DNA from: Amphiscolops sp. MND2022
Lineage: Eukaryota
DNA length: 64,000 nt
Direction: 5' to 3'
Assembly: GCA_964187785.1 (NCBI GenBank)
Contig: OZ076412.1
Location: forward strand, 9,982,001-10,046,000
Shown: piece by piece, positions 482 to 32,345 of the stretch
How positions within the stretch are numbered: position 1 is the stretch's first letter
Layout: each line of letters opens with the position of its first letter
The notes under the pieces: generated by a model
Seen by the model: only the letters and a program-made list of their open reading frames with translations
The model's database searches: none
What the model was told of the DNA's origin: nothing
Made by a program: the position numbers and the translations under genes

Positions 482-1512
482 TGGTGACAGGAGTCCTCAA
501 TGACTCAACGAACCTCGGAAAGAAGAAAACACGACCGCATCGCCCACAAAGTTTGCCACCCAACGAACGTCCTTCGACATCACGACTACTCTTCGCTCCC
601 CAACCGGAAATACACCAGCCGCCCCACCTACCCTCAATGCCCAAAGCACTCACTGCATCATTGCCTGTATTCGATGGTAAGTCAGAAAAATTCGAACTTT
701 TCGAGGACTTATTCCGGAACAACATAAAAATGTACCCACATCTAACAGAAATCCAAAAAATCAACTACTTCCACTCGCTACTACGAGGCAATGCACTACA
801 AGCATATTGCAACTTAGACGATGCCAAAAAAGATAACTTAGAGGAGGTAATTACGGCGTTTAAACGGCGCTTCGGAGTTTTTCAATCTTCTGCCAAAGCG
901 AGATGCGAATGGGACTCGCTACATTTTGACCCAACCAAACAAAAATTACATGAATTTTTGGATACACTGCAAAAAACGGCTAAAGAAGCGTTCGGCTCTG
1001 AAGCACAAAAATTTATAGACAAGGCCATATACGCCAAAATGCCGGACCACGTCAAAAAGATTCTTAACCGAGCCTACCTCGAGGACAAACCCTATAATGA
1101 TATTGTCCTACATCTCGAACGAGAGATGCGCCTTAAAGGCCTGGGAACCCCAGACGAAACCACACTAGTACCACTAAATACGGTCGACGTCGTCCCACCG
1201 GAACCAAAAAAGGAACTCACCCATCGAGGAAGTTGCTTCCACTGTGGCAAACAGGGGCATTATAAAGCACAATGCCGCAAATTACGAAAAGATCGTTACT
1301 ACGAAACTAAAGCACAGAACGGTGTCCCCAACACCATTGAACCACCCAAACCAAAGTGTGACACTTGCGGAAAGCTCCACAAAACCGAGAACTGCTGGTA
1401 CGGAGCTAACGCAGCGAATGACCCCAGGAAGAAACGTCACGAATTCACAATCCCCACCAGCCAAATCAGCGAACAACCAATCCCCACTGTTGAAATCCAG
1501 TCAAAAAACTAA
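100..1512 (+). CDS. gag: Gag polyprotein (470 aa)
   Basis: Capsid-like LPVFDGKSEKFELFEDLF region; zinc knuckles CFHCGKQGHYKAQC and CDTCGKLHKTENC; lies immediately upstream of pol. Confidence 0.92.
   Translation: MTTRSQKRKAIEELVSTEIETPIHEANQNLNPVAGTSKSPRILTENLEEIRSSLRREIMSDLTKILAENQKEMLKLIAPVTKKHAEARASEEIDSDPENIPENATSTPIKTKTTATTRKITPVSSRNMVTGVLNDSTNLGKKKTRPHRPQSLPPNERPSTSRLLFAPQPEIHQPPHLPSMPKALTASLPVFDGKSEKFELFEDLFRNNIKMYPHLTEIQKINYFHSLLRGNALQAYCNLDDAKKDNLEEVITAFKRRFGVFQSSAKARCEWDSLHFDPTKQKLHEFLDTLQKTAKEAFGSEAQKFIDKAIYAKMPDHVKKILNRAYLEDKPYNDIVLHLEREMRLKGLGTPDETTLVPLNTVDVVPPEPKKELTHRGSCFHCGKQGHYKAQCRKLRKDRYYETKAQNGVPNTIEPPKPKCDTCGKLHKTENCWYGANAANDPRKKRHEFTIPTSQISEQPIPTVEIQSKN
482..493 (+). promoter_or_regulatory. 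Primer binding site TGGTGACAGGAG (possibly tRNA-Leu type)
   Basis: TGG directly after the LTR-terminal CA; same motif at 20558 and TGGTGCCAGGAG at 17074 (minus strand). tRNA identity is inferred. Confidence 0.8.
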
Positions 1513-1556
1513 AAACGCCGCGCCTCCGCTTCGGGGAAACGGTAGACGCGAGGGCG
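1503..1556 (+). promoter_or_regulatory. Programmed -1 ribosomal frameshift signal
   Basis: Slippery heptamer A AAA AAC (1503-1509) directly before the gag TAA; the -1 frame is open into pol; a GC-rich hairpin (CGCC-GCG..CCG/CGG..CGC..GGCG) follows 6 nt later. Confidence 0.8.
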
Positions 1557-1598
1557 TACACAATAGAAGACCCCCCAAATCGCTACGAAGAAGACTTC

Positions 1599-4500
1599 AT
1601 GACCGAATGCAACGAAGAACCGACACAGGATTGGCAACGTCGTTGGAACGTAGGCATGATACTTAGACACAATGCACGACACCCAGAAGACCCAACACCA
1701 CTACCCCAATGGATAACAGAATCACCCGATAACTACGCGACACTAAAAAGACCCTTACCAGAATCAAAGACAGAACGCATTTACATATATGATAGAGACT
1801 ATAGATGTGATCCCTGGGATGAACCAACCATCTATGACACAAACAAACTCTCTTTTAAGATCCAAGTTTCAAATCCTCAGGCTCAAGTCACCGAGAGTAC
1901 AACCCTACCAACACCTTTGTCACCAATCCTAAAAAAGACAACACAGTCCTCGCCAACACCCGCCACTACCACGTCCACACCAATAGATGCAGAGAACATC
2001 ATCTGCATCGAGGATAAAACAATATGGACACAACAGGCAAACGAACAACGCGGGGTAGATGATCAAACAGTATCACCACCAACAATAGCATCCGAATTGC
2101 CAACTCAGGAAAACAATCATGCAGACGACGAAGTAACGGAATGCCCACAACAACTGCCATATGATCTCAACATCATAAAAGAATTCATACAACATGATAA
2201 AGACGACGACTACATTCCGTTAATGTCGGCAATTACCCTCAAAAAGAAGAAAAGAATGCTCTTTATTCCTCTCGACTTTGAAAACACTAGAATTGATGCA
2301 TTAGTCGACTCGGGAGCCTACATCAACGTCATCAGTGAAAGAGATGCAGACAAGATACAAACTGAAGCCAACGCAACCATAATCGCGAAAGCACCTCCAC
2401 CCCCTTTCAAGATACAATATGCCAACACAGAACTCGAAAAAGCCCGTGCAACATACACAATGCAATTCAAAATCGGGGACTACGCGTTCGAAGAAACTTT
2501 CATCATCATGACCAAAACATCTTACCCAATCATTGGCCTGGCATTCCTCCGGAAGCATTCCGCAATCCTAGACACTGCACAAGGAACAATAGACTTTCCT
2601 AAAATACAAATCACTCTAGCCCTAAAAGATGAAAGACAAAAGTGCAACCCCAAACCCATCACTATCAAGACGGAAGAAAAACACACCATACCAGCCCAAG
2701 CCACGCGGATCATCCACGCTTCCATCACCACAAGCAATGACCACTCAATAACTGGGACAGTCCAACCTTTGCCACAGTTCGACGAAAATGCAAAACTCAT
2801 AGTAGCCCCAGCAATAACAACAGCCCGAGACAAACGAGTCGCGATAAAAATAGCGAACACCACAGACTTCCCCTATACAGTAACGCCACATACGAAACTA
2901 GCAGAATTACAAATACTGAAACCCGAAGAAACGAAATTGATACGAGCAGTAGACATAGCAGCCCTCAATCTACTCACCGAACACGACGATGTTGTTGCGT
3001 ACGTTAATGCACTGATGCAAGTTGATTCGTCAGAACAAACAGAAGAGAAATTCTGGTTCCCAACTCCCGAAAATCCCGGAGATGAATCGGAACACACACC
3101 CATCCAACAACGCATTCTACGAGAACTACGCGAACTACAAAGATTAGAAGAACTGGACCCCAAACAAGACGAAAAATCCACAACACAATTCCTCTCGCTA
3201 TTCAAATGGAATGATTCACTAATAACGGGAGAAGAACGTGAAAACCTAGAGTCCACCCTAGTCGAATTCAATGACATTTTTGCACGTCACCGACTGGACA
3301 TCGGAATGAACAACCAGTTCAAGGTATGCCTAACTCCCAAAAACGACAAACCGGTATATACACAGAGTCTCCTCGTACCCATCAACCTCAAAGACGACCT
3401 CACAGTAGAATTGGCACTGATGCACAAATACGGGATCATCACAACCCTCCCATTCTCGAAATATGACAGCCCCATCTTCGCGCAACGCAAACCCAACGGC
3501 AAACTACGGCTCCTAGTGGACTTACGGAAGATCAACGCCCTCATCTCAGATGACTACATAAACAACAACCACCCCATCAGCACCCTCTCAGATGCCGCAC
3601 AACACCTAGCGGGGAAGCAGCTGTTCTGCAAACTAGATTGCTCACAAGCCTATCACTGCCTCCAAATGGCAGATCAAAGGTCAGTAGAACTCCTTGCATT
3701 TAATTTTGCTAGTAGAACGTTTGCCTATCGTAGGCTAGCCCAAGGACTTAGTAGAGCCTTGTCAGCCTTTTCGAGCTTCATGCGGGAATACCTTGACACC
3801 GTCATCAAAGCAGACCAGTGTGCCCAATATGTGGACGACATTGGAATCGCCGCCAACACAACGGAACAACTCATTAAGAACATAAGAGCAGTCTTCAAAT
3901 GCATCCGCAAGGCAGGACTAAAACTCACAATTGAAAAATGCCACTTCGGTGTCACCCAAATCGAATTCCTGGGAAGAACCATCACACCCCACGGAGTAGC
4001 ACCGCAAGACCACAAAATCATCAGTTTCTTGTCAAAAATCAGATTTCCCCGGTCAAAGAAACAAGTCCAGAAATACATTGGATTCATCAACTACTACAGA
4101 AACTACATACCAAGACTGTCCGAAAAAATGATTGGAATGTACGAACTCCTAAAAGCAGATGCCAAAATCACCATATCAGAAGAATTAGTCGACAACTTCA
4201 AAGCCATCAACGCAAGCCTAGCGGAAGCATGTGGGCTAGCCCTCAGACAACCAGTTGCGGGAAAACAATACGTACTAATGACGGACGCAAGCTTCCGGGC
4301 ATCAGGTTATGCCCTAATGATAGAAGAAAACGACGATAAAAAGCTACTCTCCAAACGGAAAACTTTCGCACCGGTCGCTTTTGGTTCCTGTGTATTCTCG
4401 CCGTCACAGCTGAAAATGTCATTATACTGTAAGGAGTTCCTTGCCATCTACCACGCATTCCTAGAGTACAGCCACATCTTATGGGAAACGACGCTACCAA

Positions 4501-6719
4501 CCCTAGTTTTAACGGACAATAGATCGGTAACAAGGTTTTTCCAAACAAAGACAACGCCACCTGCGCTCTGGAATGCTTGTGACTACGTACTACAATTCAA
4601 ATTCCGTATCATGCACGTAGCAGGGTCACAAAACACAGCTGCCGATTTCCTGTCTCGCCTAGAATTAACGCCAAAAGAAAAAGTTCAGCTCAAGCTACGA
4701 GACGACATTATAACGGCACCCATTGAAATCAACCTACAGTCCACAGATGTTGCCGATGAGGAACAACTTTTTTTCCTACCAGATGAGGAAGAAGAATCAG
4801 AACAGGAAGTTCTTGCAAGAAAAACCCTTAGCAAACAACGAGCAATAGACGAAACAGAACAGCGAAATCTATCCACCGAAATAACAGAAGCAGTCCACAT
4901 ACCGCTCAACACAGCAGTCTACGCATTCGGAGCAATCAAGGAAAACGCACGAATACGCAACGAACAGGATGCCGATCCAATCCTGAAAGCACTAAAGCTC
5001 CGCCTACTCCACGAAGAATACGACAAACACCTCCTCAAAACTGAACCTAGAGGACGAAACCTCCTGCGCCATGAAGAGAGAATAATAGTCAAAGACGGAG
5101 TCCTCATGCGCAAATATTACGGAGAGGACGGCACGGTCACGCATCACCAAATCTTCATACCGAAACACATAGTCCCTGAACTCCTATCAACACTGCACGG
5201 AAAAACCAACAAACACCCTGGCATAACAAAGATGATTCAAGAAAGCCGAACAAAATACTACTACCCGGGACTTGCACGGAAAATTAGAGCCTGGGTAATC
5301 AACTGCCCTGATTGCATAGCCAACAAACGAATAGACTCGCGACAAATACGTCCAAAAATGCTGAGCAATACAGAATTCACATTTGGACCAGAAGATTGTC
5401 TAGAAGTCGATATTTTACCCAACTTACCCTCATCGAATGGTTACAAACACATCATAACAATGATGGACGTGTTCTCCCGCTACCTCTTCGCATATCCTAC
5501 ACAAGACATGACCGCCAGAACGGTAGGCCGATGTATAATCGACGTAATGACGCGCCACTGCTACTTACCTACAGTCATTCTCACTGACAAAGGATCACAA
5601 TTCCGATCAGATGTAGTAAATCAAATTGCACAGACACTTGACATCCGGATCAGCCACGCGTCAACAAAGCATGCACAAACAATCGGCATACTCGAAAGAA
5701 CGCATGCATCTCTAAAGACTTCCCTCAAGATATCAACGGGAGAACGCCGTTCAATGTGGCACAAATACGTACAAATTGCAGTCATGAATTACAACACTAG
5801 CTACCACGAGAGCCTAGGATGTGAACCAACAGCCGTATTTCACGGACGCATCCCGTACAACATTCTGGACATCAAGCTGGGACTCAAGCCAGAATGGAAA
5901 AAAGACGCCAACGAAGACCTAACGGACGAACTACAAAAACAAATAGCTGAAATCCATCAATCAGCAAAGGACAACCTTATGCAATCATATTTGAAATATA
6001 AGCGATATTACGATAAAAAAGCGACAGCAACGCCATTGAAAGTCAATGACTATTGCTACGTCCTGAATCCGAAGGCTGATAACCAGTCAATGAAATTCGC
6101 TTTCAAAGATTGCATTTGGACAGGACCATACATAGTGGTCAAAGTCCTTTCCAATAACAATTACGTCGTAAGACGAACGGGAACAAGATACACGCAAACT
6201 CTCCATAGAATTCGCCTAAGGCTATATGCGCCCAATCAACGAGTACCTGACGTAACAGTCAAAGTGGAAGATCAACTTCCAGATCCCGAGGTTAAAACAA
6301 CCCATGATGATTGGTACGCGCAAGCTTGGGAAACCGAATTCGGAGAAGTTCTGTTCGGGAACGCCACGGAAAAAGAAAATAACGAAGCTACCATTATAGA
6401 AGTGCCAACTGAAGACGGAGATACAACGGAGCGAGAACCAGTTATAACAACTGCGAACGAAAAGTCAACGGAAGAAAAAACTTACTCTGGAAATAACACG
6501 TCATTCAATTTGGACGTCAGCGATAATCCCTACATAACAACCCCACCGCCTATGGAAAGCCCCCCAATACCGCCTACAATACCACCTATAGTTGTTGGAT
6601 ATAATCCGAGAAAAACAGGAAGATACAACTTACGGCCTAATCCTAAACCTAACGCGCATCCTGACTTCCGGATGCTCGACGCAATCGTCACGGAAGAAAG
6701 CTCTCAAGCCTCAAACTAG
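1599..6719 (+). CDS. pol: Pol polyprotein (protease, dUTPase-like spacer, RT, RNase H, integrase), uninterrupted
   Basis: LVDSGA at 2307; YVDD at 3828; MTDAS..DNR..ADFLSR (RNase H); H-x6-H..CPDC zinc finger; EVDIL..TDKGSQF..GILER (integrase DDE). Confidence 0.97.
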   Translation: MTECNEEPTQDWQRRWNVGMILRHNARHPEDPTPLPQWITESPDNYATLKRPLPESKTERIYIYDRDYRCDPWDEPTIYDTNKLSFKIQVSNPQAQVTESTTLPTPLSPILKKTTQSSPTPATTTSTPIDAENIICIEDKTIWTQQANEQRGVDDQTVSPPTIASELPTQENNHADDEVTECPQQLPYDLNIIKEFIQHDKDDDYIPLMSAITLKKKKRMLFIPLDFENTRIDALVDSGAYINVISERDADKIQTEANATIIAKAPPPPFKIQYANTELEKARATYTMQFKIGDYAFEETFIIMTKTSYPIIGLAFLRKHSAILDTAQGTIDFPKIQITLALKDERQKCNPKPITIKTEEKHTIPAQATRIIHASITTSNDHSITGTVQPLPQFDENAKLIVAPAITTARDKRVAIKIANTTDFPYTVTPHTKLAELQILKPEETKLIRAVDIAALNLLTEHDDVVAYVNALMQVDSSEQTEEKFWFPTPENPGDESEHTPIQQRILRELRELQRLEELDPKQDEKSTTQFLSLFKWNDSLITGEERENLESTLVEFNDIFARHRLDIGMNNQFKVCLTPKNDKPVYTQSLLVPINLKDDLTVELALMHKYGIITTLPFSKYDSPIFAQRKPNGKLRLLVDLRKINALISDDYINNNHPISTLSDAAQHLAGKQLFCKLDCSQAYHCLQMADQRSVELLAFNFASRTFAYRRLAQGLSRALSAFSSFMREYLDTVIKADQCAQYVDDIGIAANTTEQLIKNIRAVFKCIRKAGLKLTIEKCHFGVTQIEFLGRTITPHGVAPQDHKIISFLSKIRFPRSKKQVQKYIGFINYYRNYIPRLSEKMIGMYELLKADAKITISEELVDNFKAINASLAEACGLALRQPVAGKQYVLMTDASFRASGYALMIEENDDKKLLSKRKTFAPVAFGSCVFSPSQLKMSLYCKEFLAIYHAFLEYSHILWETTLPTLVLTDNRSVTRFFQTKTTPPALWNACDYVLQFKFRIMHVAGSQNTAADFLSRLELTPKEKVQLKLRDDIITAPIEINLQSTDVADEEQLFFLPDEEEESEQEVLARKTLSKQRAIDETEQRNLSTEITEAVHIPLNTAVYAFGAIKENARIRNEQDADPILKALKLRLLHEEYDKHLLKTEPRGRNLLRHEERIIVKDGVLMRKYYGEDGTVTHHQIFIPKHIVPELLSTLHGKTNKHPGITKMIQESRTKYYYPGLARKIRAWVINCPDCIANKRIDSRQIRPKMLSNTEFTFGPEDCLEVDILPNLPSSNGYKHIITMMDVFSRYLFAYPTQDMTARTVGRCIIDVMTRHCYLPTVILTDKGSQFRSDVVNQIAQTLDIRISHASTKHAQTIGILERTHASLKTSLKISTGERRSMWHKYVQIAVMNYNTSYHESLGCEPTAVFHGRIPYNILDIKLGLKPEWKKDANEDLTDELQKQIAEIHQSAKDNLMQSYLKYKRYYDKKATATPLKVNDYCYVLNPKADNQSMKFAFKDCIWTGPYIVVKVLSNNNYVVRRTGTRYTQTLHRIRLRLYAPNQRVPDVTVKVEDQLPDPEVKTTHDDWYAQAWETEFGEVLFGNATEKENNEATIIEVPTEDGDTTEREPVITTANEKSTEEKTYSGNNTSFNLDVSDNPYITTPPPMESPPIPPTIPPIVVGYNPRKTGRYNLRPNPKPNAHPDFRMLDAIVTEESSQASN

Positions 6720-6979
6720 ATAAAAACAAATAACGAACCAAACCGAACCGGAATGGCAACGTCAATTTTTCTCTCCACTAAAATAATCACTACGGAACAA
6801 ACTAAATAAAATAGATATAGAATACTGGCCAAAGAAAACAAGAAAAATAACAATAGATACATAAAGTTATTTCGGAAGACCACACAGGGCTTCTTTATTC
6901 TATGACGAACATCAGGATCTTCGTTCGCCTTTGTCTTGCTCCCTTTAGACTTCTTCGAAGCACTCTCGCTGCCACTTTT

Positions 6980-9900
6980 TTAAATCACGGCCACATCTGC
7001 ACTCACAACGCTCTTCTTTGACTTCGAACCACCAGTAACTGTTCCCACCGCCGTGCCTTGTCCGCGGATCTCCACTGCCTTCTTGCCTTTCACAGCAGAA
7101 CTAGAAGTACTGCCAGTATCACTGACGACTGATCCTTGTCTCGAACGTGCCTCACGGTTAGCCTTGTTCAGCCCAATATAATAGATCTCACAGGATTTCC
7201 GACGCTCCAATAAAAAATCACGATATAGCGATCTATAACGAGTGATGAACGCATCCAGATCCTCTCCGCATATGCCACGCCACAAATCAAAATCAGCTGC
7301 AACATAGAAAGCTCCAGCATTTGCGATAGCCTCCCGTACTACATCCAGAGTACGATCCACAAAGAAAGTTTTGTGAGCATAACCCCAACTGAGTACATAC
7401 GACTGAACTAACAGCAAACAATCACGAACAATCGCCGTACTAAAGGCACAACCACTCAAGTCGAGCGTCACAACAGGGGGAACAGCTTCGGGCACCCCAA
7501 TCACCAAACAACAGAGCTTGAACACACGAAAGAGATGCACTCGAGCCTGGAAACTAAAATCCCGGATAAGGTACCGGATAACATCCGGAATGTCACTTGC
7601 AGCATGTTTTTCACCCGCGTGTTGTCTCCGCTTCTCAATGATGTAACTGTGGTACTCCTCCACTGCAGCTGCCGACTCGTCCGCCTTCAACACTCCACAG
7701 GATTTCAACAGATCACACAAAGACGCAAACAACCCAAACACAGTGTGGTCATCGCCCTCTAGCATAATCTCAGGGCAAAAACTGTAGAGACCCTGAGATA
7801 GTTTCAAAGTTACAGCCATGTTCCGCAACAAAACCACCACCAGATGATCCAGGAAAGAACGACACTTTGAGCGAAAATCGCGAACCTCACTTGTCTTCCC
7901 TGCAGCCAGCTCTTTCCCATAGGCATAGTTTGCAGGGAATTCCTCGATTGGCACTGCTGCAAAAGAACTCAGTTTGCTCTCGTCCATATACGACTCCCAA
8001 TCGTGAATCCCAGGAAGATCAGAAGAACTACGGGTCTTTAACAGCAGGCAGTAAACAAAGTTGCAGATCTCACCATAACTGTGAAACCCGTAATCAGCCC
8101 GGCCCTGTCGCAGCTTCTCGAAGTTGAAATCAACCAAAACACCCACGATATATCAGAAATTGGAATACAATAGAAACCTCAGTCGGAATCAAGACGATAG
8201 ATCTATTTTTACTCTCAATCTGTACAATCAGAAAACATAATACAAAACAAAAACAAAAGACCATACTTACAAAGATCGAGCACCTGACGGAGTAATCCGA
8301 ACCGATAAACCATAAGGTTATCAGAGATTATCTCAAAATCAGTGCCCTTCAGCTAAAAAGCAACAACCAGTTAACCTACACAGTTCAACCACTGAAGACG
8401 ACAGAGATGTACAAAACCAAAGAAAAAAAAACAACAACAATAACCCACCCTGTCCATAACGTCTTTCAGGTGGGGATGACCAGTATATCGAATATACGGA
8501 CGAATGGAAGGCCACAGTTCTATGAGGTCCGTCAGCACAGCGCGGAGATCACTGAAGTCAACGGAACCTGCGCGTACTGCCTTCTTTAGAATTGGTTTGT
8601 CCTCCACCCAATCCTCATGCACGACACTTTTCAATCGGAGGACCACATATTCCACCGCAGTCATCACTTCCAGCATTCCAAAAATGTCCTGGTGCGCTTG
8701 GCGAAAACACTGCATAAACATGTCCTCATTGAATCGTTGCACCTGTAGAAACTCCCGACCATCGCCACGATTGTCGCCAAGAACGCGGAGTAAAGACGGG
8801 CTACCACCCACAATTGACACCGGTAACTGCTGTGAACCAACACTACTAACAACACGTGCCAAGGGAACAAGCTCCGCGTCCGGAACCGGAAGATCCAGTG
8901 ACTGACATCCCACACAGACTTTCTTTAAGTAGTTGCCCTCCAACAGAGCACGTAGCACCGCTCTTCAATCGTCGTCCTCTCATACTGAATGGCATACTCC
9001 TTAAAGCTCGCAATGCTCTTTAGTGTCAAACGCAAGACCCGCGGCGCAAGGCCCTGACACAAAAAAGACTAAAACACACAAGAACAATATCATAACGGCG
9101 CCACCTAACAACCTACAAAAAATACATATATATATCACACTACCAACCACAGTCTCTGACCGACTCCAACCCAAAGCGTACTGAGGTGCTTGCGTCTCCA
9201 AAGTAGCACGGAAATGACCCCACAGGCGCCGCAGCAACGTATAATCACCTCCACTACTCAGAAGATCGCAGAAGCGTGACACCAGGGTCATAAATGGCAC
9301 TCGAGACGTCACTTGGGCATGTTTGGGCACTCGATCTTCCGGGAATGGAAAGCCCTCCGCAAAGTCTACGAAAGCACGAGCATTGAAATTGGCTAACTGG
9401 TTGGCGGACAGGACCATGGGCTCCATTAAACGATTCAACACAGGAAGCCCCATGTGGACACGATACGTGACATCACGAAACCAATGACCATCACTCCGGA
9501 AATGCCGCGCAAACTCACCAGCTCCTTGCGCTTTCATTCCAACGTCCCGATGACACACGCGACAAAAGAAAAATTTTTCGGAGCCACACTTGGAGCCAGA
9601 TACGAAGACTTCATAGGCAGGATTTAGAGTCAGCATATCACGCCGCAACCGGTTCCGGCTGCTGTACTTCTTCACCTTCTTCACGCTACTCAATCGCTCT
9701 TCCATCCTTGCAGCAAGATCTTGGAGACCTACAACACCAAACAAACCCTCAGCGGAAAACAAAATAGACATACTGACGACGAACTCATGACAGCATTTCA
9801 GGACAATATAACAAAAATACCCCACCCAAAATTATAAACAAAAGTATACGTACCGTTCTGAATAGTTTGTGAGGCTCTAGTTCTAACTTCATCCACAAGC

Positions 9901-10853
9901 TGTCTTCTCAACAGAGCCACATCCTGAGGGCTTAACGCTAACCCACCGGGACCACTCAGGGGATCTTCCTCTTGACCTAAAACATCAACCCCCTGGCTAA
10001 AACCTGACGAATAAAATACAAGATCACCCTCCCTTCCCCAGTTTGAACATAAAAATACCTCACAATTAACCCAAATAACGACCCTACCCAAAATATATAA
10101 ATAATACTAACTACTCAAAGGATTAGCTGCAACGGTACCCGGAGGAGGAGACGACGAAGAATCCCTTGAATTCCGACTGCGTTTGCTGGGGGTCACGATT
10201 TTCACGGAAGTCTTCCGTGACCTGCTCAGTTTTGAACCTACAACAATCACACCCCCTTTTTGACTCACCCGTATACAACGCGGAAAACGTCCCCAACAAA
10301 TAACAACAAAACTGCCAAGTAACCTTTCAGAACTCCGGGGCGGGGATCAGCCTCACCTTCGTGAGACTCTTCGCTAGTGTCCAAACGTTGTTGTGAGTCA
10401 GCTATTAACCCAGAAAGCCCAGGTCCACTAACTCCAACTGCAGTGCCACCCGGATCTGCGGCGGAACAACTGACTGCTTCAGTCGTTGGAAGGTCAAACT
10501 CTGAGACTTTAGACAACACTGTAGTCAGCATCTCGCTAACAGTAAGCAATGGAGCCGTCGACAAAACGGAAGACACAGGTGGCAGTTTGGAAAAGGACTC
10601 AGGTAACCCTCCGTCACCCCCAAAGGAAGAACTGGCCGGGACAGTCCCGGGAACAACAGAGGAGGAAGCAGGTTGAGTTACTGAAAATCAAGATCTGGTT
10701 TGACGCGTCAGAGTTACGGGTAAGACTGGAAAAGGCTGATCACCAAAACAACAGTCCAATTACCCAAGTGAGTCAGAAAGATTTTTACCAACCTGGAACA
10801 TGACACACAGGATCGCCTTCTGAATGCAGAACATCATCGTCGTCCTTATCCAT
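6980..10853 (-). pseudogene. Antisense multi-exon gene resembling a hAT transposase without recognisable catalytic residues; this copy has frameshifts
   Basis: ATG at 10853; GT-AG introns at 10792-10681, 9147-9069 and 8270-8220 (others probable); Zn finger CRVC..H..SDGH; WSRSETV|SFLCQGLAP; LIELWPSIRPY; FRSKCRSFL..L; covers ORF-track ORFs 10265-10576, 9798-10091, 9001-9825, 8371-8958 and 6980-8146. Confidence 0.65.
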
Positions 10854-11009: not shown

Positions 11010-11167
11010 TGACGTCACGCGAATTATTCCCAGAAAAGGAATTGATGACGTCATGATGTAGCTCAAAATTGGAAACTCATTTCACGGTTCAGCCAATCAC
11101 AGCGCAGATGGAAACGAAACGCTTCCGAAGAAAAACGAACTTGAATAAAAGAAAAATAACAGCCAAT
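11010..11167. promoter_or_regulatory. Putative bidirectional internal promoter
   Basis: TGACGTCA (CRE) at 11010 and 11046; AGCCAAT at 11091 and 11161; sits between the divergent ATGs at 10853(-) and 11268(+). Confidence 0.55.
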
Positions 11168-11267
11168 AGGAATGCAGGAAAAACACGAACGAAAAGAGAG
11201 TTGACCTCTACATTTGCCGCATTCTAAACGTAAAGATAAGTCAGTTTGTAATAATCTCAAATTCAAA

Positions 11268-12002
11268 ATGAGCAACTACGACTTGGTTATTGACATCTCT
11301 TCCGACGAAGAAGAACGAGATAACGGCGTACGACAAAGTACCCCCATTAAAGTACTCCCGCTTAACGTGATAACAACGTTGGATCTTTCCGGATCTTCGT
11401 TGGAAGCTACAAAAGGCAGCACGGAGGAGATGATGTCGTCCGTTAACGACCTCAACTTATCAGACATCTCCGCTTCTACCTTTGAAACAATCGGCACTCC
11501 GAAGAAGATCACATTTAGTACCGCAAGCCCTGGAGAGGAATTCATAGTAGAAAACCAAAGTGCAATTTCGTCCGACGAAAGTTATTTCGAAGAGCCGGAC
11601 ACTCCCCGTCAGTTGCCCCCACTACAGCATGCACCTGTTTTACGAGACGTGACGAACAAAGAGCTCCCGTACAACGGACCGCCCCCGAAAATTGACAGAC
11701 TCGACGACTTAACGGAACCGTCAGTAGAAGAGGTCGAAAACGCCTATGGCATAGATCTACAAAGCAGCCGAGAGTACAGCCCGTTGTGCGGACGGGGAAC
11801 GCGCTATACTTCTACAAAACTGGCAAGAGCACGAAAACAACCAGTACTGATCACCAGAGAGATTCCCCATTGCCCCAGACCGTGGTCAACAGGCTATAGA
11901 GGCGCCCTGTCACGACCCGCTCCCGGTCGGGACTTCACTTGCTGTGGAGGAATACCGCAATTCACGCGAGGAAAAGGACACGGCAGAGCTACACAACATT
12001 GA
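11268..12002 (+). CDS. Extra sense ORF of unknown function (S/T/E/P-rich, probably disordered)
   Basis: First ATG (AAAATGAGC) inside ORF 11214-12002; no transmembrane segment or signal peptide; 3' end may be frameshifted. Confidence 0.55.
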   Translation: MSNYDLVIDISSDEEERDNGVRQSTPIKVLPLNVITTLDLSGSSLEATKGSTEEMMSSVNDLNLSDISASTFETIGTPKKITFSTASPGEEFIVENQSAISSDESYFEEPDTPRQLPPLQHAPVLRDVTNKELPYNGPPPKIDRLDDLTEPSVEEVENAYGIDLQSSREYSPLCGRGTRYTSTKLARARKQPVLITREIPHCPRPWSTGYRGALSRPAPGRDFTCCGGIPQFTRGKGHGRATQH

Positions 12003-13490
12003 GTAAACTCTATTTAATGCCTTACCTTTTATCCAAACAGTAGCACGAATTAAGTTTAACGGAAGCTCAACGTAAATTATTCAAAAATGATTTAGACAAA
12101 AAGAAAACTTCCGGTTTAATGATTTCACATGCAATCGTTTCATCACTTCCGGTTTCGACTGATGAAAATTCCATGCCAATCTAAATACTAAAAAGGAAAC
12201 ATTCCTAACACTGGGATCAATTTTTCTTTTCTCCACACTAAAATGAAAACACTAAAACAATATTTAATTCCGTGATCCCAACGGAACGCATACGATCTAA
12301 AATGAAAAGAACATAGAAATAGTTTAGTACAGTTGTTTCCAAAACCAGAAGTAGTCGTAAAAAGCCACTCAAATCACAGTCAAGTAATTTGAATAAACTT
12401 TTACAAAGCTATGGCAGCGTCACTCAAATAAACAAGCTAATAGTATTCCTAATTTTACGGACCAATAGCGTCACAGCTAAAAGCCGGTATGTTTGCGCTC
12501 AAGCTAGTAAGGACCATCCTAGTGACGTCATTAAGAATTTAAAGATGGCGAATTACTCCGCTTTAGCTCCACTAGCAGTTAAGAAAGTTATAGCTAATCT
12601 TAATACGTACGGAGCGCTTACGGGGCAAATTGTAAATCGACGAAGTTATACCTAATGTTAATACATGTAAGACGACAATGGAAAAACCTAAAACCTGGGA
12701 ACTACTCTAATACATCAAAACATTCTTAAGAAAATGTAGAATTACATCAGAATGCCTAAAACGTCACTATGTCTAATTATTACCTCTCCGAACCTTTTCC
12801 GTTTTAGTGATTGATTAAAAAGTTCGTGCTGTTAATTAGGATAAAAGTGAATCCTTACAAAAGGGTGCTTCTTCCTATTCTGTAGAAGAATATTTTGTGT
12901 ATTAATTACGTTGTAGAAACGTTGCTTTCGTGCATATGCTATTTAATTGTTGCATTTGTCAGTGTTAACTGACTCAATTCATGTAAAGTTAGATAGATTA
13001 TTGTTGGTTGTTTTCTGATTTACAATAATCAGGTTTTTTAGTTCGTATTCATCACTTTTCCAGCATCATTTGTTCCTTCTCAAATATCTCAGTTTATCAA
13101 TCCAAAATTCGCCCGAGATATCTCCGTAACAAATTTCGCTTGTCATTCTTTTATCGCAAGCTGAAAGTTTGCCACTCGTAAAGTGAATCATCGTTCATGC
13201 CCGCGTGCTTTCCGCGATAAAGTTTCAACTAGACATTTGTTTTGCCGCCTTTTTCCGCGATCAAACCGGAAATGATGTTAATGAACAAAAATGATTTCAA
13301 CAAGTACTCCGTAAGGGAACCGTGACTAGGAATTTTAAATCATGAACAATTAATAAAAGGGTTGAAATAATAAGGATGATTAAGCCTTTTTGTTGAACAA
13401 AACCGATTTTAAGGATTCCTAGGAATTTTTAGGTGAGGAACAAATGATGCTGTGAAAGTATATATACCTAGGGATTTGTAAAATAAGTGA

Positions 13491-13971
13491 ATCTGTTTTC
13501 TTAACCTGCTACGTTAATACTCCGTTTAAAAACCATATTTCTTTGAAGAATTCGAGTTTTCCAAAGAACAATTTTCCTTCTCTTCTAAAATGACTACTAG
13601 AAGCCAGAAAAGAAAAACTATCGAGGAATTAGTTTCCACTGAAATCGAGACTCCGATACCTGAGGCTAACCAAAACCTAAATCCCGTAGCGGGAACGAGC
13701 AAATCTCCTAGAATACTCACCGAAAACCTAGAAGAAATTAGATCTTCCCTGAGAAGAGAGATAATGTCCGATCTCACTAAAATTCTAGCTGAGAACCAAA
13801 AGGAAATGTTAAAACTAATAGCCCCAGTAACTAAAAAACATGCTGAAGCCAGAGCATCCGAAGAAACTGATTCTGATCCCGAGAACATCCCGGAAAATGC
13901 GACATCAACACCAATAGAAACCAAAACCACTGCGACTACTCGTAAAATCACACCGGTAAGCAGTCGTAACA
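13491..13971 (+). repeat. 3' LTR (minimum extent; true start upstream, candidate TGTAA at 12631)
   Basis: About 99% identical to 1-481; followed by unrelated GGCAT... instead of a PBS. Confidence 0.93.
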
Positions 13972-15299: not shown

Positions 15300-18200
15300 T
15301 AGATACTCCTATTCGCTATAAGGACTTTTAAGTCTGGGGCTGGGTACTCTTCCATTTGGGCTGCTGGGTGTGCTTGGAGTATTCGCCGCAGTTTATTCTC
15401 AGATATGCACTGCAAAACAGGATATGCCTACAAAACAGGATGCACTACGTACCATTGCATTTTCGAGGATGTGAGAACTAAAAACTGCTGGACGCGGGAG
15501 CTCTTCAAAGTGGCACTTTGAAGAGCTCCCGCGTCCAGCAGTGTTTAGTTCTCATATCCTCGAAAATGCAGTGGGACGTAGTGCATCCTGTTTTGTCGGT
15601 AGAGCTGTAGAGTGGGCCTCAATTGTCTGATATTCGTCGTTTTCGGTTGGTTATTTTGCTGTTGTTGGGCAGAATTTAGTTGCTGCCTCGTTACAGTTGC
15701 ATAGTCGGAGGTTCTGTCAGAGTAGTGCAGTCTGTCGTACAACAACCATAGGACTTGGAAGTTGTTGGATTAAACTTTGCCTACGTAGAATTTGGTAGAA
15801 GACTTTGTTTGTTTGCCAGAATGCTGCCGACATTATGGCGTCTGGTTCTGCAAGTTGTCGTGAGTTGTTGGTTTAAGTATATTGCGTGAACTTTTGATCT
15901 GGTTTGGTATTGGATAATGTGACTTTACAATTTTTCACTTGGACTCGAATGCTTCGTTGTATTCCACGTCGTAGCAATCAATGTGGTCATCATTCGTAGC
16001 GGGTAAGCTTTTTTCCGGTGTGATGGGGGTCACTGCTTCACGGTTGTTTTGGGACTGCTTGAAGTCCCGACGGAATTCTCGATTTTCCGCTGTTGACTGC
16101 TGATTGTATGGGCATTTCGGTAAGCGGAAGTTTCTTGTCTCTGCAGTCCCGTAGGGAATGTCCAACTTTACCACAGATTTGATAAACTTGCATAAAGTTG
16201 TACATCAATTGTCCGGTTGATGTTGGCTATTGTTGTCCGATTGGGGACGTTCTTGAGGTTTGATGTTGATTCCTTTTGCTTCATCTCTCAGACATTTGCG
16301 TCATTGTGGCCTACTATGATGCAGTATCGGCAATTGCTTTTGAATTTGTGCTCGACTTCCTTGCTGGTTGTTGGTTTGCCAGTGTTGTTAGTGGCTGAAG
16401 TTGGTTGAGTCCCGCGTTGCCGTTCCTGGTGGTTGTAAATTTGGTTTAACGGTTGTATACCAGAAGTACCAGAGAGCAGTTGTGCGTTTTGCATAGTCGT
16501 TGCACGAACGTTGTTTTTCCTCCCTCTGATGTTGCATCATGTTTCCCTGCCAATGGCGAGTTCGTTGTGAATCTGGAGTGGGAGTTTTGCGAATAGAAAT
16601 TTTTCAGCAATTTCACTTGTCTTCTCGTCCTAAGCCTATTTGGTTGTTTTCTTGAATTTCTGCAAGAAATCCGTGAGTTACTCTGTTGTCGAGTCATACC
16701 TCGTTTGGTCTAATTTGTATTTTGACACTTGCTTGAGGTCTTCTTTTACGTATTCTTTGTTGAACAATTCCAAGGTGTCTATCAGGAGGCGTCACCCATG
16801 AGTTTTGCTCTTGTCAATTTATGCATATGAGGACTGAGGTGATTTTTGAGGAGATGCTCCATATCGTTGTATTTCTCACGATTTCTTCGGAATAGCAGAA
16901 CTTCGGTTTGTAGTATTTTGGGTTGAAACAACCCATCGGTCCTTGTTGACCGCAGTTTCTGGATTTCTGTCATGACATATTGCATGTGTAGTTCGTGGCA
17001 TAGTTGGGGAGTTCTTCGTGGCTGGTTTGTTTTGGGTGTCGGATTTGGTGGATTCTCCGAGACTCCTGGCACCATGTCAGAGAGACTTGACGCCTTATCT
17101 TTGTGGACGTTTTGGGCACTCTCTTCTCTATTGCTAAAGGCATTTTTTTCTGCGAGCGCTCTAACCATGCTTGTCAATTCCAGAATTTGATGGTTCATAT
17201 CCATTAATCGCTGTTCCATGCTGATTCTCTCACAATCTCTTTCATGAGCTTGGACTGTTTCCTCATTAGGCTCACAAAGGTGGTTTCTCGAACAAAGATC
17301 AGAGAAATTGGTATTACTTCCATTGTCACTAAATGTTTCTACTTGTTCAGCTTGATTCCTTTCGAGAGTTCGTGATCTCGTGATTACCATAGAAAGGAGG
17401 TTGTATGGTTTGAGGAGTGATTTTTGTAGAGTTCAAATCAAATTTTACGTTTCAGTTTATTATCAGTTTTACAATGCAGAATTACTGCTGATGAATAGCA
17501 CGTCTCTACGTCGAGGTTACAAGTTTTTCAGTGAACAATTTCCATTGCGCAATTGTTACTTCAATTTGTTGTTTGCGCGTTGGTATCACATGACTAAATG
17601 CGTACTTTCGGTTGGTTCGTACTTAAGGTGCTAAATATTATATCATGGTATTATGTACGACTGGTTACTGCAGTTGTTGTTTATCATCATAATTGCATCT
17701 TCGCAGCTGTTATTGCCTGCTCTGGTATAAATATATGTTGTTAAATCTCACAGCAAGTGCTAATAACTACTAATGATTGCAGTTTTAACCATGGTTACAT
17801 GTACTTTTGCAAAGGACTGTTTATAAACTTCCACTTGTTTAAAACGATACTTCGTATACTGATGACGACTGAAGGTTGTGGTCGTTATCATGATTTCACT
17901 TTTTTTTACAAATGATGGGTACTATGGCTAGTAAATGCACAAATCGGCGCATTAATAACTACATGATCAGGGAAATGAAGTATTTTGAACTCCATTCAAA
18001 ATGCTTAAATGGTGACGACTGGTTAGGTCAGTCGTTGTTTCTTCGAAATCATTTTTGAAATACTAGTTCACTTGAAACTGAGTTTCAAGTTCTTGACGAC
18101 TGGGTATGTTGTCCTTCAATCACTTCATGCTATTGGGTAGGACATTCACTCAAAGAAAGCAATAACCCTGATTGGCCAATCAAAACGCTTCTGTACGTTG

Positions 18201-19346: not shown

Positions 19347-22300
19347 TGTGACTTTTGTTAACCCCAATTTCACTTAGTTACCATTTTGTGCTAATGACCA
19401 TGCGGCATTATACGGTTTGAGCATTATCGCATTCTCACCATTATGCGTTTTTATCAAGTTCACTATGCGGCATCCTACGTTTGGATGTGTGACGAGTAAT
19501 CGTCATTTAATGTCACAACACTATACGTCACCCTGCGGTTCGAAAAGTGACGTATACTCGTCACTATGCCTTTTCAGCAGTGTCAGCTATAAAAGATCAG
19601 TATTATTAGAGCGATCAAAATCGCGTTCAAAGTAATCATTTTGTACGATGTAATTTATTGATGTCTAGGGTCCTAGCGCTCTATATTTCTTGAGATATAA
19701 ATAGTATGACGTTTTTGACGTAATTCTCTTTTTGAAAATCCTAGTATGACTCCCACAAAAAAGAGCGTCATGGTCTTCTTTTTTCCTGGATTAGCAGAGC
19801 AGTAAATAACGAGATTCAGTTGGAATACATTCTTCATAACGCTCAGTTTTGCAAAATTGATCCCCAAACCAGCTTTGTTAAGGCAGTCTATTCACCAATT
19901 GTTCCATCTCTTTTCTTTTGAATTTGAAAGTACAACAGCATGATTCAAATCTTTTACCCACCAAAACATCATTTTCAACTAAAAAAAATGGACAACAAGA
20001 GAAACAGAAGGTCAAGGAGACTAGAAACACCATCTCCAGAGAGAGAATTAGAGAGAACGCAAGTAGATACGTCTGTTAAAGGTAATGAGACTTTAACTAA
20101 TTTTATTACGATTGTTCAAGAAAACCTAGGTGAAAAAAACTCTGAAAATTAGTTGAATGAACCCAGTCAGCTCAGTAGTGAAATCCAAGTATGGCCACAA
20201 TTTATGGAACGAAAGAATGATGATAAAATTGAACGAATGAGAGAAGAAATGGACAATAAACTAGAGGCTATCTTGAGGAGAGAAGTTAAGTCTAACAAAA
20301 CTACATCAACAGTAACAAGCCCAAGATCGGAAATCAATGAAACACAAGATCCACAACAGTCGGGATCCAAAACCAATAAGTCTATTGGAGTTGGCGCATC
20401 TAATATTGAAAACACAGATTCAGAAAACGACGATTATCCCCCAAGAGCTTCAAAACTGAAAGACTTGAAACATCCTGCAAAACCATTATTTCAAAACGAA
20501 TCCGATGAGATGTATCTATACTTTCAAACGAAGAACCCGAGGTAGAGGATTATCACATGGTGACAGGAGCCAATCGACAAATCCATAGACAAAATTCCCA
20601 AAACCCAAACAATACAATAGGATCCCACGTAGACCAAACAAAATCTGTTGAATCCGCCAACAAGACCACTCGATCCAGTCAATCAGATTGCACTAGAAAT
20701 TGACAAACTGGAAAACAAAAATTCCCCACAATCATTATTTCATCCCAAAATTACGCTCACTTTCAATGGAAAAAACGAGAAGAAGGAGAAATTTGATTAT
20801 TTTGAAGACCCGTTTCACAAAACACTTCGAATGCAACCAAACCTAACAGAGGACATGAAGATTAACCATTTTCACGGACAGCTCAGGTGTTTGCCACTCA
20901 AGACATTCAAAAACATACAGAGAACTCCAACCACTACATTAGAAGACATTCTCAAAGTCTTCAGACGAAAATATGTAAAACTGGAATCCAGTGCATCAGC
21001 AAAGCACAGATTCAATAGACTCGCATTTGATACGGAAAATCAAAAACTTCCAGATTTCTTAGAAGAACTCCAAGAGAGCGCTGAGAAAGCGTTTAGGGAG
21101 AACACATAACAAATGATAGAAAATCTACTCTACGCCAAAATGCCACCCCACCTCAAAAAGTCCATTAATCAAGCCTACATTGAAAATGGAACCTATGGCC
21201 AAATAGTCAAACATCTCGAAAAAGAGATGGACTTGAACGATTTGGAAGCTGACCAACCTTTAGTAAAAACACAGATGACGGTCACTAAAAAAGAACAAAA
21301 CGCTAAAAAAACCACCAAAAAACAACAAAATGAAAAAAACCAAAACACAAACGACAAAAACAGTACCAAACAAAACCCTCAAAAATGACCACTGCCGTTA
21401 CAGCAAAGAGACAGTTCACATGATGGCCGACTGTCCCAAATTGGCCAAACGGCGCAAACTTGAAGAAGATCCAGACGACGAAAATCGCCAAAATTGCAAC
21501 ACACCCGGCCATGAAGTAGAAAATTGTTACTTCGGCGCGAATATGGAAAATCGTCCACCTAAATGGACCCTCACCAAAGCCCAGAAAAAGGTTATTGAAA
21601 ACTATAGACAAGCCAAAAAAACCAATAAAACCAAAAATAGAACTACAACAACAATCCTCTTCCAAGGATTTAAACTAGAAACGCACGCCCTTATACAAAA
21701 TCTCCACAGGAACAAAACTCAGCAGATGACTGGCAGCATCAACTTAACCCAAAACCTACAAAAACCAACAATTTGCGAAACTAAATCAACAACACAAAAC
21801 TCTCAACAATCAACACTGGAAACTCAACCTGAAGACTTATACGAACTCTTACATGATGTTCCAGACAACTACTTCCCACAAGAACCAACCCACCCTGAAA
21901 CCGACTCAAACTCAGTTATCCAACACACAACAAAACACCACGTAACAAAAAGAAAGTCTTGCAATGATTAAAAAGAACCCCTTTTAGATGAAGATCTCAC
22001 CGAATACATACAATTTGACAAGGAACGAAGCTTCTCATATCTCCCAATCTCATTGTCCTTTACATTAAAGCGAAAACGCCACATGTATTACATACCGATG
22101 GACTTCGGAAAACTCAATGAGGATGGTCTTATTGATACCGGAGCGCTTACAAGCGCAATCTCTGACCAAGACCTCAATAAGGTGAAGCTGTTGGCAAACG
22201 AAGCCATTACAGAAACTGGTCCTCCAACAAACTTCCAAATTATGGTGGCGAATGGACAACTAGAAGTCCCTATTGGTACTGTACTACTAGAATTTGAAGC

Positions 22301-25300: not shown

Positions 25301-25500
25301 GTCGGGATCCAAAACAAATAAGTCTATTGGAGTTCGCGCATCTAATATTGAAAACTCAGATTCAGAAAACGACGATTATCCTCTAAGAGCTTCAAAAATG
25401 AAAGACTTGAAACATCCTGCAAAACAATTATTTCAAAACGAATCCGATATAGATGTATCTATACTTTCAAACAAAGAACCCAAAGTAGAGGATTATCACA
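19347..25500 (+). mobile_element. Degenerate Ty3/gypsy element with internal deletion removing most of integrase and the 5' part of the 3' LTR
   Basis: 5' LTR 19347-20557 (TGTGA..TCACA); PBS TGGTGACAGGAG; fragmented gag/PR (IDTGA)/RT (YVDD)/RH (MSDAS); partial 3' LTR ~24955-25500; flanks GTAAT/GTTAT (probable TSD with one mismatch). Confidence 0.88.
19988..24950 (+). pseudogene. gag-pol pseudogene of element 2
   Basis: Many stops and frameshifts, but collinear with the intact gag-pol at 100-6719; slippery T TTA AAC before TAG at 21669-21678. Confidence 0.9.
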
Positions 25501-25689
25501 GTTATTAAGTAATTTTTTAGGATTTTATAAAATTCCCAAGGAAGCTTCAACGCATTGACAATTCGCTGATTTTCTGAAAACCTGTCTATAAAATGCATCC
25601 TGAATTTGGCAGCGATTCCGAGCTGCGAAGTTTTGCATTCTTCATTAGGAAGCAGTTCTAATACCTCATAATTTCTGCCGCGATTTCAG

Positions 25690-31532: not shown

Positions 31533-32345
31533 TCATACATAAAACTTGTTATAAGAGTTATCAAAATGACCGCCCGGCAAGGAACAGGGCTCTGATAAAT
31601 CATCGTGGATTGTTGTAATCTGTGGCGAAAACATGACAGTTGGCTGTTTGTAAGACCCGTTTCCCTGGGGGAATGAGTAATGTATGTGGCTATGTACCCC
31701 TGAACAGGTGTTACTGTGGTGGGTGCTAGAGGTCTTCAGGGCCGAGGCTTTGGGCAGAGGCGCCATGGGGCGATGTCCTGTTCTGGCTAGGTACATGCTA
31801 TCCCCGTCACCCTGCTCATACAACGGTTGACTGGTTATCGCAATATTGTCGCCTTGCGCTACCACTTGTTTCGCCATCAAGCGGCTGTTTTGTTTCTTCT
31901 TCCGAGTCATGTACACTGCGAGAATGAAACATGACAGCATGAAAGCCATTGAGATTATTGCCAGAATCGGCGCAATAGGGGCGCTTATGTTGACCTTGTG
32001 ACTCCAGTTTTTGGAGTTAGTTGCCAAGTTTTGGTCGTCGGTTGTCACCGTGTCAGAGTTTGCCGAGTCGATCAGAGGCAATCCAGTGACTGGCAAGATA
32101 TTCAGAAGACTGCTGGTCTTGAAAATTGCGTTTCCTCCGGAACCAATGGAGTTGCTACTTCCATGCATGGATGATTGACTCAAAATCGAAGTTTGCGTGT
32201 CCTTCACAGTGAAGAAAACGTGAATCATCCAAACATTAGATGAGTTTTGCGCAAACAAAGGTTCTGTAGAGAACGACACTTTCTTCGGCCCGTCGAACTT
32301 CATGTCGAAATATTTTGTATCCACTTGGGCTGAATCGTCGTTTTT
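31533..32345 (-). CDS. FREM-like terminal exon (TM helix + ~124 aa tail)
   Basis: ..FSTEPLF..WMIHVFFTV..ILAIISMAFMLSCFILAVYM RKKK..FYV*. Confidence 0.85.
   Translation of the reverse strand, partial: KNDDSAQVDTKYFDMKFDGPKKVSFSTEPLFAQNSSNVWMIHVFFTVKDTQTSILSQSSMHGSSNSIGSGGNAIFKTSSLLNILPVTGLPLIDSANSDTVTTDDQNLATNSKNWSHKVNISAPIAPILAIISMAFMLSCFILAVYMTRKKKQNSRLMAKQVVAQGDNIAITSQPLYEQGDGDSMYLARTGHRPMAPLPKASALKTSSTHHSNTCSGVHSHIHYSFPQGNGSYKQPTVMFSPQITTIHDDLSEPCSLPGGHFDNSYNKFYV

Follow-up and report, generated by a model that had tools for sequence, protein, structure and literature searches.

In a 64,000-nucleotide stretch of contig OZ076412.1, which we call the window and to which all coordinates refer, a Ty3/Gypsy long terminal repeat (LTR) retrotransposon of about 14 kb carries an additional gene, here termed the cargo, between pol and the 3' LTR and antisense to gag-pol. 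The cargo runs on the minus strand from an ATG at 10853 to about 6884 and is modelled as eight exons and seven introns, with a product of about 1,050 amino acids (aa; three-frame translation), which is probably a dead hAT transposase, judging from predicted folds. One mobile element, it seems, has taken over the protein of another. The explanation as a whole, which combines a captured hAT gene, a spliced antisense mRNA and a regulator acting on its own carrier, is one that we hold to be fairly probable.

The cargo gene model, in the order of its transcription, is the following.

10793 to 10853, minus: exon 1, from the ATG, with a strong unpaired acceptor 14 nt upstream at 10867
10681 to 10792, minus: intron 1, phase 1, 112 nt, GTTGGT..TTTCAG, placed by frame and signals only
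10357 to 10680, minus: exon 2, low complexity (Ser/Pro/Gly), cluster of 17 members
10238 to 10356, minus: intron 2, phase 1, 119 nt, GTGAGG..TTGTAG, placed by frame only, with a presumed donor
10112 to 10237, minus: exon 3, 126 nt, basic and Ser-rich, placed by frame only
9977 to 10111, minus: intron 3, phase 1, 135 nt, GTTAGT..TTTTAG, placed by frame and composition, with acceptor-type read-through in 4 relatives
9854 to 9976, minus: exon 4, 123 nt, placed by frame, with a similar stretch in 4 stored relatives
9729 to 9853, minus: intron 4, phase 1, 125 nt, GTACGT..TTGTAG, acceptor signature in relatives
9148 to 9728, minus: exon 5, a C2H2 (BED-like) zinc finger and the helical region after it, 232 matches
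9069 to 9147, minus: intron 5, phase 0, 79 nt, GTTGGT..TTTTAG, donor signature in relatives, missing in 5 of them
8449 to 9068, minus: exon 6, RNase H-like strands and a long helix, 76 matches
8353 to 8448, minus: intron 6, phase 0, 96 nt, GTGGGT..TTTTAG, 53% T, donor signature in relatives
8271 to 8352, minus: exon 7, 82 nt, conserved in 40 stored proteins of 8 clusters
8134 to 8270, minus: intron 7, phase 1, 137 nt, donor and acceptor signatures in relatives, acceptor non-canonical in the window copy
6884 to 8133, minus: exon 8, a helical insertion-like region and a basic Lys/Ser-rich tail

The exon lengths fit all seven intron phases with the sole exception of one base in exon 6, a break specific to this copy, and the GT..AG boundaries are canonical at six of the seven introns, the acceptor of intron 7 being of canonical type in the relatives. 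Composition follows the same division, since introns 3 to 7 have 44-53% T and 32-37% GC and the large exons 28-29% T and about 50% GC; for introns 4 to 7 the comparison is 47-53% T versus 28-37% in the flanking exons. Introns 1 and 2 are less distinct (37% and 34% T), and intron 2 has a weaker alternative in-frame donor at 10323.

The relatives were read in a protein collection of unspliced open reading frame (ORF) calls, in which reading through from an exon into an intron displays the splice signal as amino acids; scans of metagenome, viral and genome contigs and of phages found no DNA surrounding them. For exon 5, 150 of the 232 matches were listed, of which 46 reach the exon end, and five intron-less rows were set aside. 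Among these listed matches, Val (GTN) stands next after the donor at 9147 in 36 of 40 intron-bearing relatives, and Val followed by Ser, Arg or Gly in 32, whereas the count at the 24 neighbouring offsets never exceeds 2, and conservation among the relatives falls at once beyond the exon end. Since Val also follows the exon end in four of the five intron-less rows, it is the second residue together with the loss of conservation that carries this test. At the other end of intron 5, Gln (CAG) occupies the acceptor position in each of the six relatives whose sequence continues upstream of exon 6. The donor at 8448 behaves similarly: 68 of the 76 exon 6 matches reach the exon end, with Val in 62 of 67 and Val followed by Ser, Arg or Gly in 58, and with at most 3 at other offsets except for 14 at offset +12.

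The phase-1 sites give a comparable picture. The acceptor signature at 9729 occurs in 26 of 32 rows, which include near-copies of the window element, with 15 and 14 occurrences at shifts of -2 and -1 and at most 8 elsewhere. Of the 40 exon 7 proteins, 17 are without intron 7 and 23 keep it; all 23 read Cys or Arg directly after the donor at 8270, the residues demanded by a phase-1 GT. Its acceptor at 8134 shows the signature in 24 of the 30 exon 8 matches that reach it (96 in all), with at most 8 at other shifts, and three of the six misses are intron-less; in one relative (P0203) the read-through at this place measures 138 nt versus 137 nt in the window. The signatures keep their positions even in relatives with as little as about 25-30% protein identity. 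Introns 1 and 2 lie beyond the reach of the relatives, and intron 3 is covered by four rows. At introns 4 to 7 the splice sites are thus conserved, as far as protein-level read-through reports on them, and those of introns 1 to 3 are predicted. Since a conserved protein becomes readable only after removal of the seven introns, a spliced antisense mRNA is implied.

These results bear on a sequence-only reading of the same DNA, which had proposed spliceosomal introns here, had suggested that the cargo is expressed from its own spliced antisense transcript and had named beforehand splice-site conservation among copies as a check. That conservation is found at four introns (4 to 7), and together with the position of the cargo in an element whose plus-strand ORFs are uninterrupted it supports, at the level of sequence, the proposed transcript. 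All the splice dinucleotides that it quoted are present where it placed them. Its intron 10792-10681 does fuse the peptide MDKDDDD..VP in frame to the ORF at 10680, on the basis of frame, GT..AG and composition only, and its intron 9147-9069 is borne out by the donor signature of the relatives and by a gap-free junction against the five intron-less ones. The donor GTACGT at 9853 pairs with the acceptor at 9729, and the donor GTGGGT at 8448 is confirmed, its partner acceptor at 8353 being an addition. For the proposed intron 8270-8220, the donor stands and the acceptor does not: splicing to 8220 runs into a stop after one codon, the acceptor lies at 8134 according to the relatives, and the exon 8 frame is opened by none of the AGs from 8240 to 8000 in the window. 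A direct joining of 8448 to 8220, which would make 8352-8271 non-exonic, is ruled out by the relatives that carry exon 7. The donor GTGAGT proposed near 10268 has to be dropped, being of phase 2, only 31 nt from the next acceptor and running into a stop. Missing from that set were the introns 10356-10238 and 10111-9977 and the long last exon from 8133 to about 6884; the sequence-only reading also had not noticed the damage to this copy of the cargo or the probable transposase ancestry of its protein.

Relatives without particular introns provide a second view of the junctions. The protein P0102 is a single unbroken ORF of 890 aa, colinear with exons 5 to 8 (tblastn E 8e-29 and 3e-20; hhalign probability 98.4 and 99.6). 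With the junction marked by a slash, the window and an intron-less relative align without a gap across intron 5 (SRSETV/SFLCQGLAPRVLR versus SKTETL/TILGQTLYPRIVR), and a further junction is likewise gap-free (RQVLDL/X-DFNFEKLRQGRAD versus QLMLDT/F-HIHLPKLRQSRSD). The contig of P0102 is 4 kb long, and this protein could derive from a transcript; the contigs of P0082, P0248 and P0187 measure 18, 96 and 416 kb, and 95 sequences are represented by P0187. In a midpoint-rooted tree of 37 exon 5 rows, the five rows lacking intron 5 form one clade (98/95) nested among intron-bearing rows. Intron 7 is missing in P0187, P0199, P0248 and P0102, and in a tree of 43 exon 8 rows it is missing at three places, a number forced by the starred branches of the best tree; these 43 of 96 rows were hand-picked, 20 are of unknown intron state, and P0102 is a long branch. 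Resting on those starred branches, the pattern suggests that introns have been lost precisely and at least three times. The read-through of intron 4 is kept in P0102, P0082 and P0103 and that of intron 6 in P0248, so that the partly intron-less relatives fit a loss proceeding from the 3' end.

The identity of the cargo protein is drawn mainly from predicted structure. Exon 5 contains a zinc finger of the form C-x2-C...H-x5-H, with ligands CCHH in the window and intact in 46 of the 72 matches that cover it; zf-BED appears only once, at E 0.045, in one distant relative. The exon 6 model (pLDDT 63, pTM 0.42) consists of a helix, three strands, a helix, a strand, a helix, a strand and a long helix, and its residues 62-233 superpose on residues 175-345 of the hAT transposase Hermes (Z 4.5, rmsd 12.5, 108 aligned, rank 7 of 48,161). 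Three Hermes entries stand within the top ten of a structure search with this model, and Foldseek places Hermes at rank 1 (E 0.042). The model of exons 7 and 8 (pLDDT 73, pTM 0.55) matches, over residues 1-237, Hermes 343-565 at rank 1 (Z 6.0, rmsd 5.3, 167 aligned), with unrelated helical chains within 1 Z. That two separate models fall on adjoining stretches of the same Hermes chain is itself an argument for a hAT-like fold. At lead level, the Atlas neighbours of P0102 are hAT-derived (ZBED5, FAM200, DUF4371, DUF659) in 8 of the 10 best named, these 8 having a family or clan in common, with scores of 0.79-0.82. An Atlas search with exon 8 gave RhoGAP-like leads (0.79-0.84) that were rejected as below the trust level, and an exon 8 search for full-length forms of 684-2000 aa gave no match, although P0102 exists.

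According to PMC6027215, Hermes requires D180, D248, R318, W319 and E572. The register of these residues in the cargo has to be taken from the match ends, since structure comparison gives ranges only. On this register, the first catalytic place reads Glu-Lys at the end of strand 1 (Glu in 36 of 38), the second has Gly after strand 4 in 52 of 55, the expected Trp of the RW motif is Phe in 55 of 56, and no conserved acid was seen among the relatives after the last matched helix, where the third would lie. The catalytic D, D, E triad and the RW motif are therefore, as modelled, apparently not kept.

The carrier is a Ty3/Gypsy LTR retrotransposon, since two LTRs, a primer binding site, gag and a pol with the order protease, reverse transcriptase (RT), RNase H, integrase, which is the Ty3/Gypsy order, are all present. 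Its parts other than the cargo are these.

1 to 481, plus: 5' LTR, cut by the window edge, with a CA end, containing the gag start codon
482 to 493, plus: primer binding site, starting TGG directly after the LTR end, within the gag frame
100 to 1512, plus: gag, 470 aa, intact, with DUF1759 (E 2e-9), Retrotrans_gag and zf-CCHC, cluster of 241 members
1494 to 6719, plus: pol, 1706 aa, intact, with RVT_1 (E 4e-23), RT_RNaseH, Integrase_H2C2, rve and an aspartyl protease, cluster of 491
11268 to 12002, plus: second extra ORF, 244 aa, intact, of no known family, head to head with the cargo, cluster of 27 members
13445 to 13971, plus: 3' LTR, its end firm and its start a candidate (TG after a purine-rich tract)

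The 5' LTR (1-481) and positions 13491-13971 are 99% identical, with 5 differences in 481 nt, and a TGG-type primer-site motif also lies directly 3' of the LTR in a neighbouring Gypsy element. Within the roughly 6.7 kb from pol to the 3' LTR, four long ORFs lie on the minus strand and one, of 244 aa, lies in sense. This latter ORF, the only sense extra ORF after pol (the env position), is intact and of equal length in most of its 27 cluster members, and a Pfam scan of it gave no match above cut-off.

Several observations bear on whether the cargo belongs to this element. At third codon positions the cargo exons have T 0.32-0.38, G 0.30-0.32 and A 0.14-0.17, and pol has A 0.40, C 0.31 and T 0.15, gag being likewise A/C-rich, so that the silent sites of the cargo, T/G-rich on its own strand, mirror those of gag and pol; third positions are even in two host-like exons of the window, and the flanks are without strand skew. 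This strand-mirrored composition suggests a long co-replication of the cargo through plus-strand RNA. No inverted repeats bracket the cargo among the 25 longest of 69 pairs. Its own subfamily is multi-copy (17, 29 and 30 members for exons 2, 6 and 8), the exon 8 relatives amount in total to 917 sequences in 96 clusters, and across the relatives the exons are conserved at protein level and the introns are not, conservation dropping at the donors. By apparent contig sharing, an indirect measure, exon 6 and exon 8 go together in 7 of 15 cases, and the 244 aa sense ORF goes with cargo exons on 6 of 13 other contigs; the pol on one cargo-sharing contig is the closest seen (98.6%). The wider cargo family is thus likely, on this sequence evidence, to be linked to gag-pol. 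One further protein, P0004, has cargo exon 5 fused immediately to the sense ORF at its end; either this copy has undergone an internal inversion or its assembly is chimeric.

The stretch that separates the cargo ATG from the divergent sense ORF is likely to be a two-way promoter, to judge from its motifs and position.

11010 to 11167, no strand assigned: candidate internal two-way promoter, with TGACGTCA at 11010 and 11046 and CCAAT boxes at 11068, 11093 and 11163

The palindrome TGACGTCA occurs 4 times in the window versus 0.8 expected, with 3 of the occurrences inside the element; the motif ACCGGAAR is not enriched in the window (7 versus 3.5 expected). A short sense ORF of 36 aa (MANYSALAPL...) at 12545-12655, close to the third of these palindromes (12523), belongs to the AT-rich region that precedes the 3' LTR and has no counterpart in the protein collection. 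The unpaired acceptor at 10867 may receive a 5' exon in cis, for which a donor at 12025 is a candidate, or else a spliced leader; trans-splicing of leaders is frequent in at least one acoel (PMC9911081), which bears on the cargo only if the host is an acoel.

Introns antisense to the genomic RNA cannot be spliced before packaging and are hence copied by reverse transcription, which would fit the survival of the cargo introns. On this footing we propose that a Ty3/Gypsy lineage long ago acquired a hAT transposase gene, which came to lie backwards in the interval separating pol from the 3' LTR and has been retained as an accessory gene. The genomic RNA would carry the cargo in reverse, so that its seven introns escape the spliceosome and are reverse transcribed, and a separate minus-strand mRNA, started by the putative internal promoter near 11010-11170, would be spliced to give the protein of about 1,050 aa. 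This protein would keep the zinc finger, the transposase layout and the basic tail and would lack the catalytic triad. A DNA-binding, multimer-forming and non-catalytic protein with a basic tail would suit a nuclear regulator; that it is nuclear and regulates the element by binding DNA, activating or shielding its transcription, is a step that we rate, taken alone, as a little short of an even chance. Occasionally the spliced mRNA would be copied by the element's RT and recombined into the element, which would account for precise intron removal; template switching of RT onto packaged mRNA has been described (PMC5131818). The wider proposition, under which an entire clade of animal Gypsy elements would have made a DNA transposase its own, in the way that hosts do, in the form of an eight-exon antisense gene controlling the element or shielding it from silencing, with introns lost repeatedly, precisely and mostly from the 3' end, is more tentative still, and we would not put it forward as the expected outcome.

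The window copy itself is broken at three places in the cargo: the frame is disrupted near 8940, the acceptor at 8134 is non-canonical, and a stop at 6982-6980 comes prematurely; in close relatives the reading passes both 8940 and 6980 without interruption. A copy in this state would depend on intact sister copies: it could have moved with protein supplied by them, or it could have broken after insertion.

A number of observations weigh against the proposed account. Cargo decay in the window copy stands beside an intact gag and pol. Pfam scans of the exons and of two alignments of relatives (A5 and A1) gave no match above the curated cut-off and no hAT family, the A5 alignment being poor, with fragments stacked, and used only for a member-wise scan; profile searches of solved structures returned nothing useful. 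Each fold match taken alone is weak (Z below 8, Foldseek E above 0.001), and Foldseek on the model of exons 7 and 8 found nothing, Hermes not being listed. The zinc ligands are broken in 26 of the 72 matches, many of which may be decayed copies. The splice evidence consists of amino-acid read-through in relatives, and near-copies inflate its counts; P0001 appears to lack intron 4, not precisely, and yet keeps intron 5, which would contradict a strict 3' order of loss. Apparent contig sharing of gag and of pol with own-subfamily cargo, again indirect, reaches only 2 of 14 members each, and the two gag proteins from cargo contigs are no closer to the window gag (92.8%) than others are (90.6-93.2%, one fragment 76%).

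Alternatively, the cargo could be a hAT element nested in this single copy, a host gene of hAT descent that happens to sit there, or a functionless passenger, with the relatives mostly free genes. The hAT-like fold, the weakly shown linkage of the relatives to gag-pol and the lack of any cargo seen in the neighbouring Gypsy element at about 20010-25550 all speak for such an origin; yet there are no inverted ends around the cargo, LTRs of 99% identity surround it, its silent sites mirror pol, and its exons are conserved where its introns are not. Moreover, the catalytic positions appear lost, which would preclude self-spread, and yet 917 sequences in 96 clusters exist. We regard this origin as improbable. 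Still lower is the standing of the view that T-rich sequence has produced the splice signals by chance and that the ORFs are fragments unrelated to one another. Signals of the type GT..GT or GTRAG do occur 43 times in 4 kb of the minus strand, and two of the sites claimed in the sequence-only reading proved wrong, but the position-specific signatures with their neighbouring-offset controls, and the gap-free intron-less relatives, already refute it for introns 4 to 7, so that it bears only on the exact sites of introns 1 to 3 and deserves practically no credence as a general explanation.

Other alternatives accept the gene and differ over its task. With the same gene and origin, the cargo protein could work late, taking the complex of cDNA and integrase into the nucleus or tethering it to chosen DNA, a role for which the retained zinc finger and basic tail would be suited and which resembles the nuclear entry proposed for plant antisense ORFs (PMC7264820); a separate mRNA would however mean that the protein is not packaged within Gag-Pol, and we consider the late role unlikely, if somewhat less so than a nested or host origin. 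A dominant-negative inhibitor is expected to resemble a transposase without its catalytic triad, which is the layout seen here, and the dead transposase might therefore be aimed at other elements, by binding hAT ends, poisoning hAT multimers or blocking rival retroelements, to the benefit of host and carrier alike. No active hAT family close in sequence to the cargo was found, and the cargo has diverged too far from known hAT proteins for sequence profiles to reach them, which leaves this role very improbable.

Antisense extra genes in LTR elements are already known from plants and fungi. Ty3/Gypsy elements of plants carry antisense ORFs placed and oriented like the cargo, after pol and ahead of the 3' LTR (maize Grande gene23, rice RIRE2, Silene Retand; PMC7264820, PMC11963269), and most copies retain them; the protein made from Grande gene23 is nuclear, the gene having a promoter of its own, and Retand ORFs contain a Transposase_28 domain (57 of 104 antisense ORFs, PMC11963269). 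Unlike these, the cargo sits in an animal-type host genome, has seven introns and probably follows the hAT transposase layout over most of its length; the word 'intron' is absent from the text of PMC11963269 that was accessible. PMC7264820 called the origin of the plant antisense ORFs unknown, described them as resembling no other elements and urged that spliced antisense transcripts be looked for. In the Boty/BcGypsy1 elements of Botrytis cinerea and Sclerotinia, the gene brtn (Zhao et al. 2011, as cited in PMC7264820 and PMC8365987) is likewise antisense between pol and the 3' LTR of a Gypsy element, but is fungal and has no transposase origin. Spliced antisense genes are known as HBZ of HTLV and APH-2/3/4 of deltaretroviruses (PMC3185765), which share with the cargo a protein-coding spliced antisense mRNA in a reverse-transcribed genome and are nuclear regulators of their own element's transcription. 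HBZ starts in the 3' LTR and is a bZIP-like protein of about 206 aa, whereas the cargo product is of about 1,050 aa, transposase-like, probably driven by an internal promoter and without overlap with sense genes.

On the transposase side, Hermes and hAT-derived proteins of the ZBED5, FAM200 and ZNF862/KIAA0543 types resemble the cargo protein, as modelled, in having a zinc finger, a helical region, RNase H-like strands and a long helical insertion in the same order. The two weak matches to Hermes run consecutively from 175 to 565, and the difference lies in D180/D248/E572 and R318/W319, which are apparently not kept; in contrast to hAT elements and their derivatives, the cargo has no inverted ends and is carried by a retroelement rather than fixed in a host genome. 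LTR-mediated retrocopies in animals, as described in PMC5131818, are also foreign coding sequences captured between LTRs and re-amplified, but arise from spliced mRNA by template switching and are without introns. Since the cargo has introns, it must have entered as DNA or unspliced RNA, or gained its introns in place. Literature searches, which were scant on subscription papers and had repeat databases outside their scope, returned no description of an LTR element whose antisense gene is hAT-derived or has seven introns, and it is the hAT origin together with the seven introns that we have not found in print.

The cargo would be an antisense gene whose origin can be traced, probably to a class II transposase, amounting to the domestication of one mobile element by another. 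Seven introns in a reverse-transcribed genome amount to nature's own version of the antisense-intron reporter, and how RT removes introns can be tested directly by comparing families that have single introns with families that lack them; if the domestication proves to be clade-wide, this would be a natural test in many copies of RT-driven intron loss. Spliced antisense cargo genes also escape ORF-based repeat annotation.

The LTRs of the carrier show some further features. An inverted pair of 24 nt (13054-13077 and 13436-13459, 92% complementary, spacing 358 nt) has a right arm that spans both the candidate purine tract and the beginning of the LTR. The LTR contains the start codon and the first 127 codons of gag, whose frame passes through the primer site, and because gag starts inside the LTR the 3' LTR ends in a gag-like ORF of 165 aa (13590-13971). 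The same arrangement is seen in an element at about 20010-20557 and in a fragment at 16785-17432 (minus).

Elsewhere in the window, the second Gypsy element (about 20010-25550) belongs to the same clan and is decayed, with LTRs 91% identical and an RT about 63% identical; a deletion extends from within pol into its 3' LTR, and no integrase core was seen in it. Two long open host-like exons lie at 31536-32345 and 39189-39962 (minus), the first with a likely transmembrane stretch, and neither has a Pfam match. The remainder includes a 174-mer array at 32347-33066, a 16-mer tandem array at 57932-58263, and inverted copies of an 11-mer-based repeat element at 48713-49382 and 61046-62045, which are 92-95% identical.

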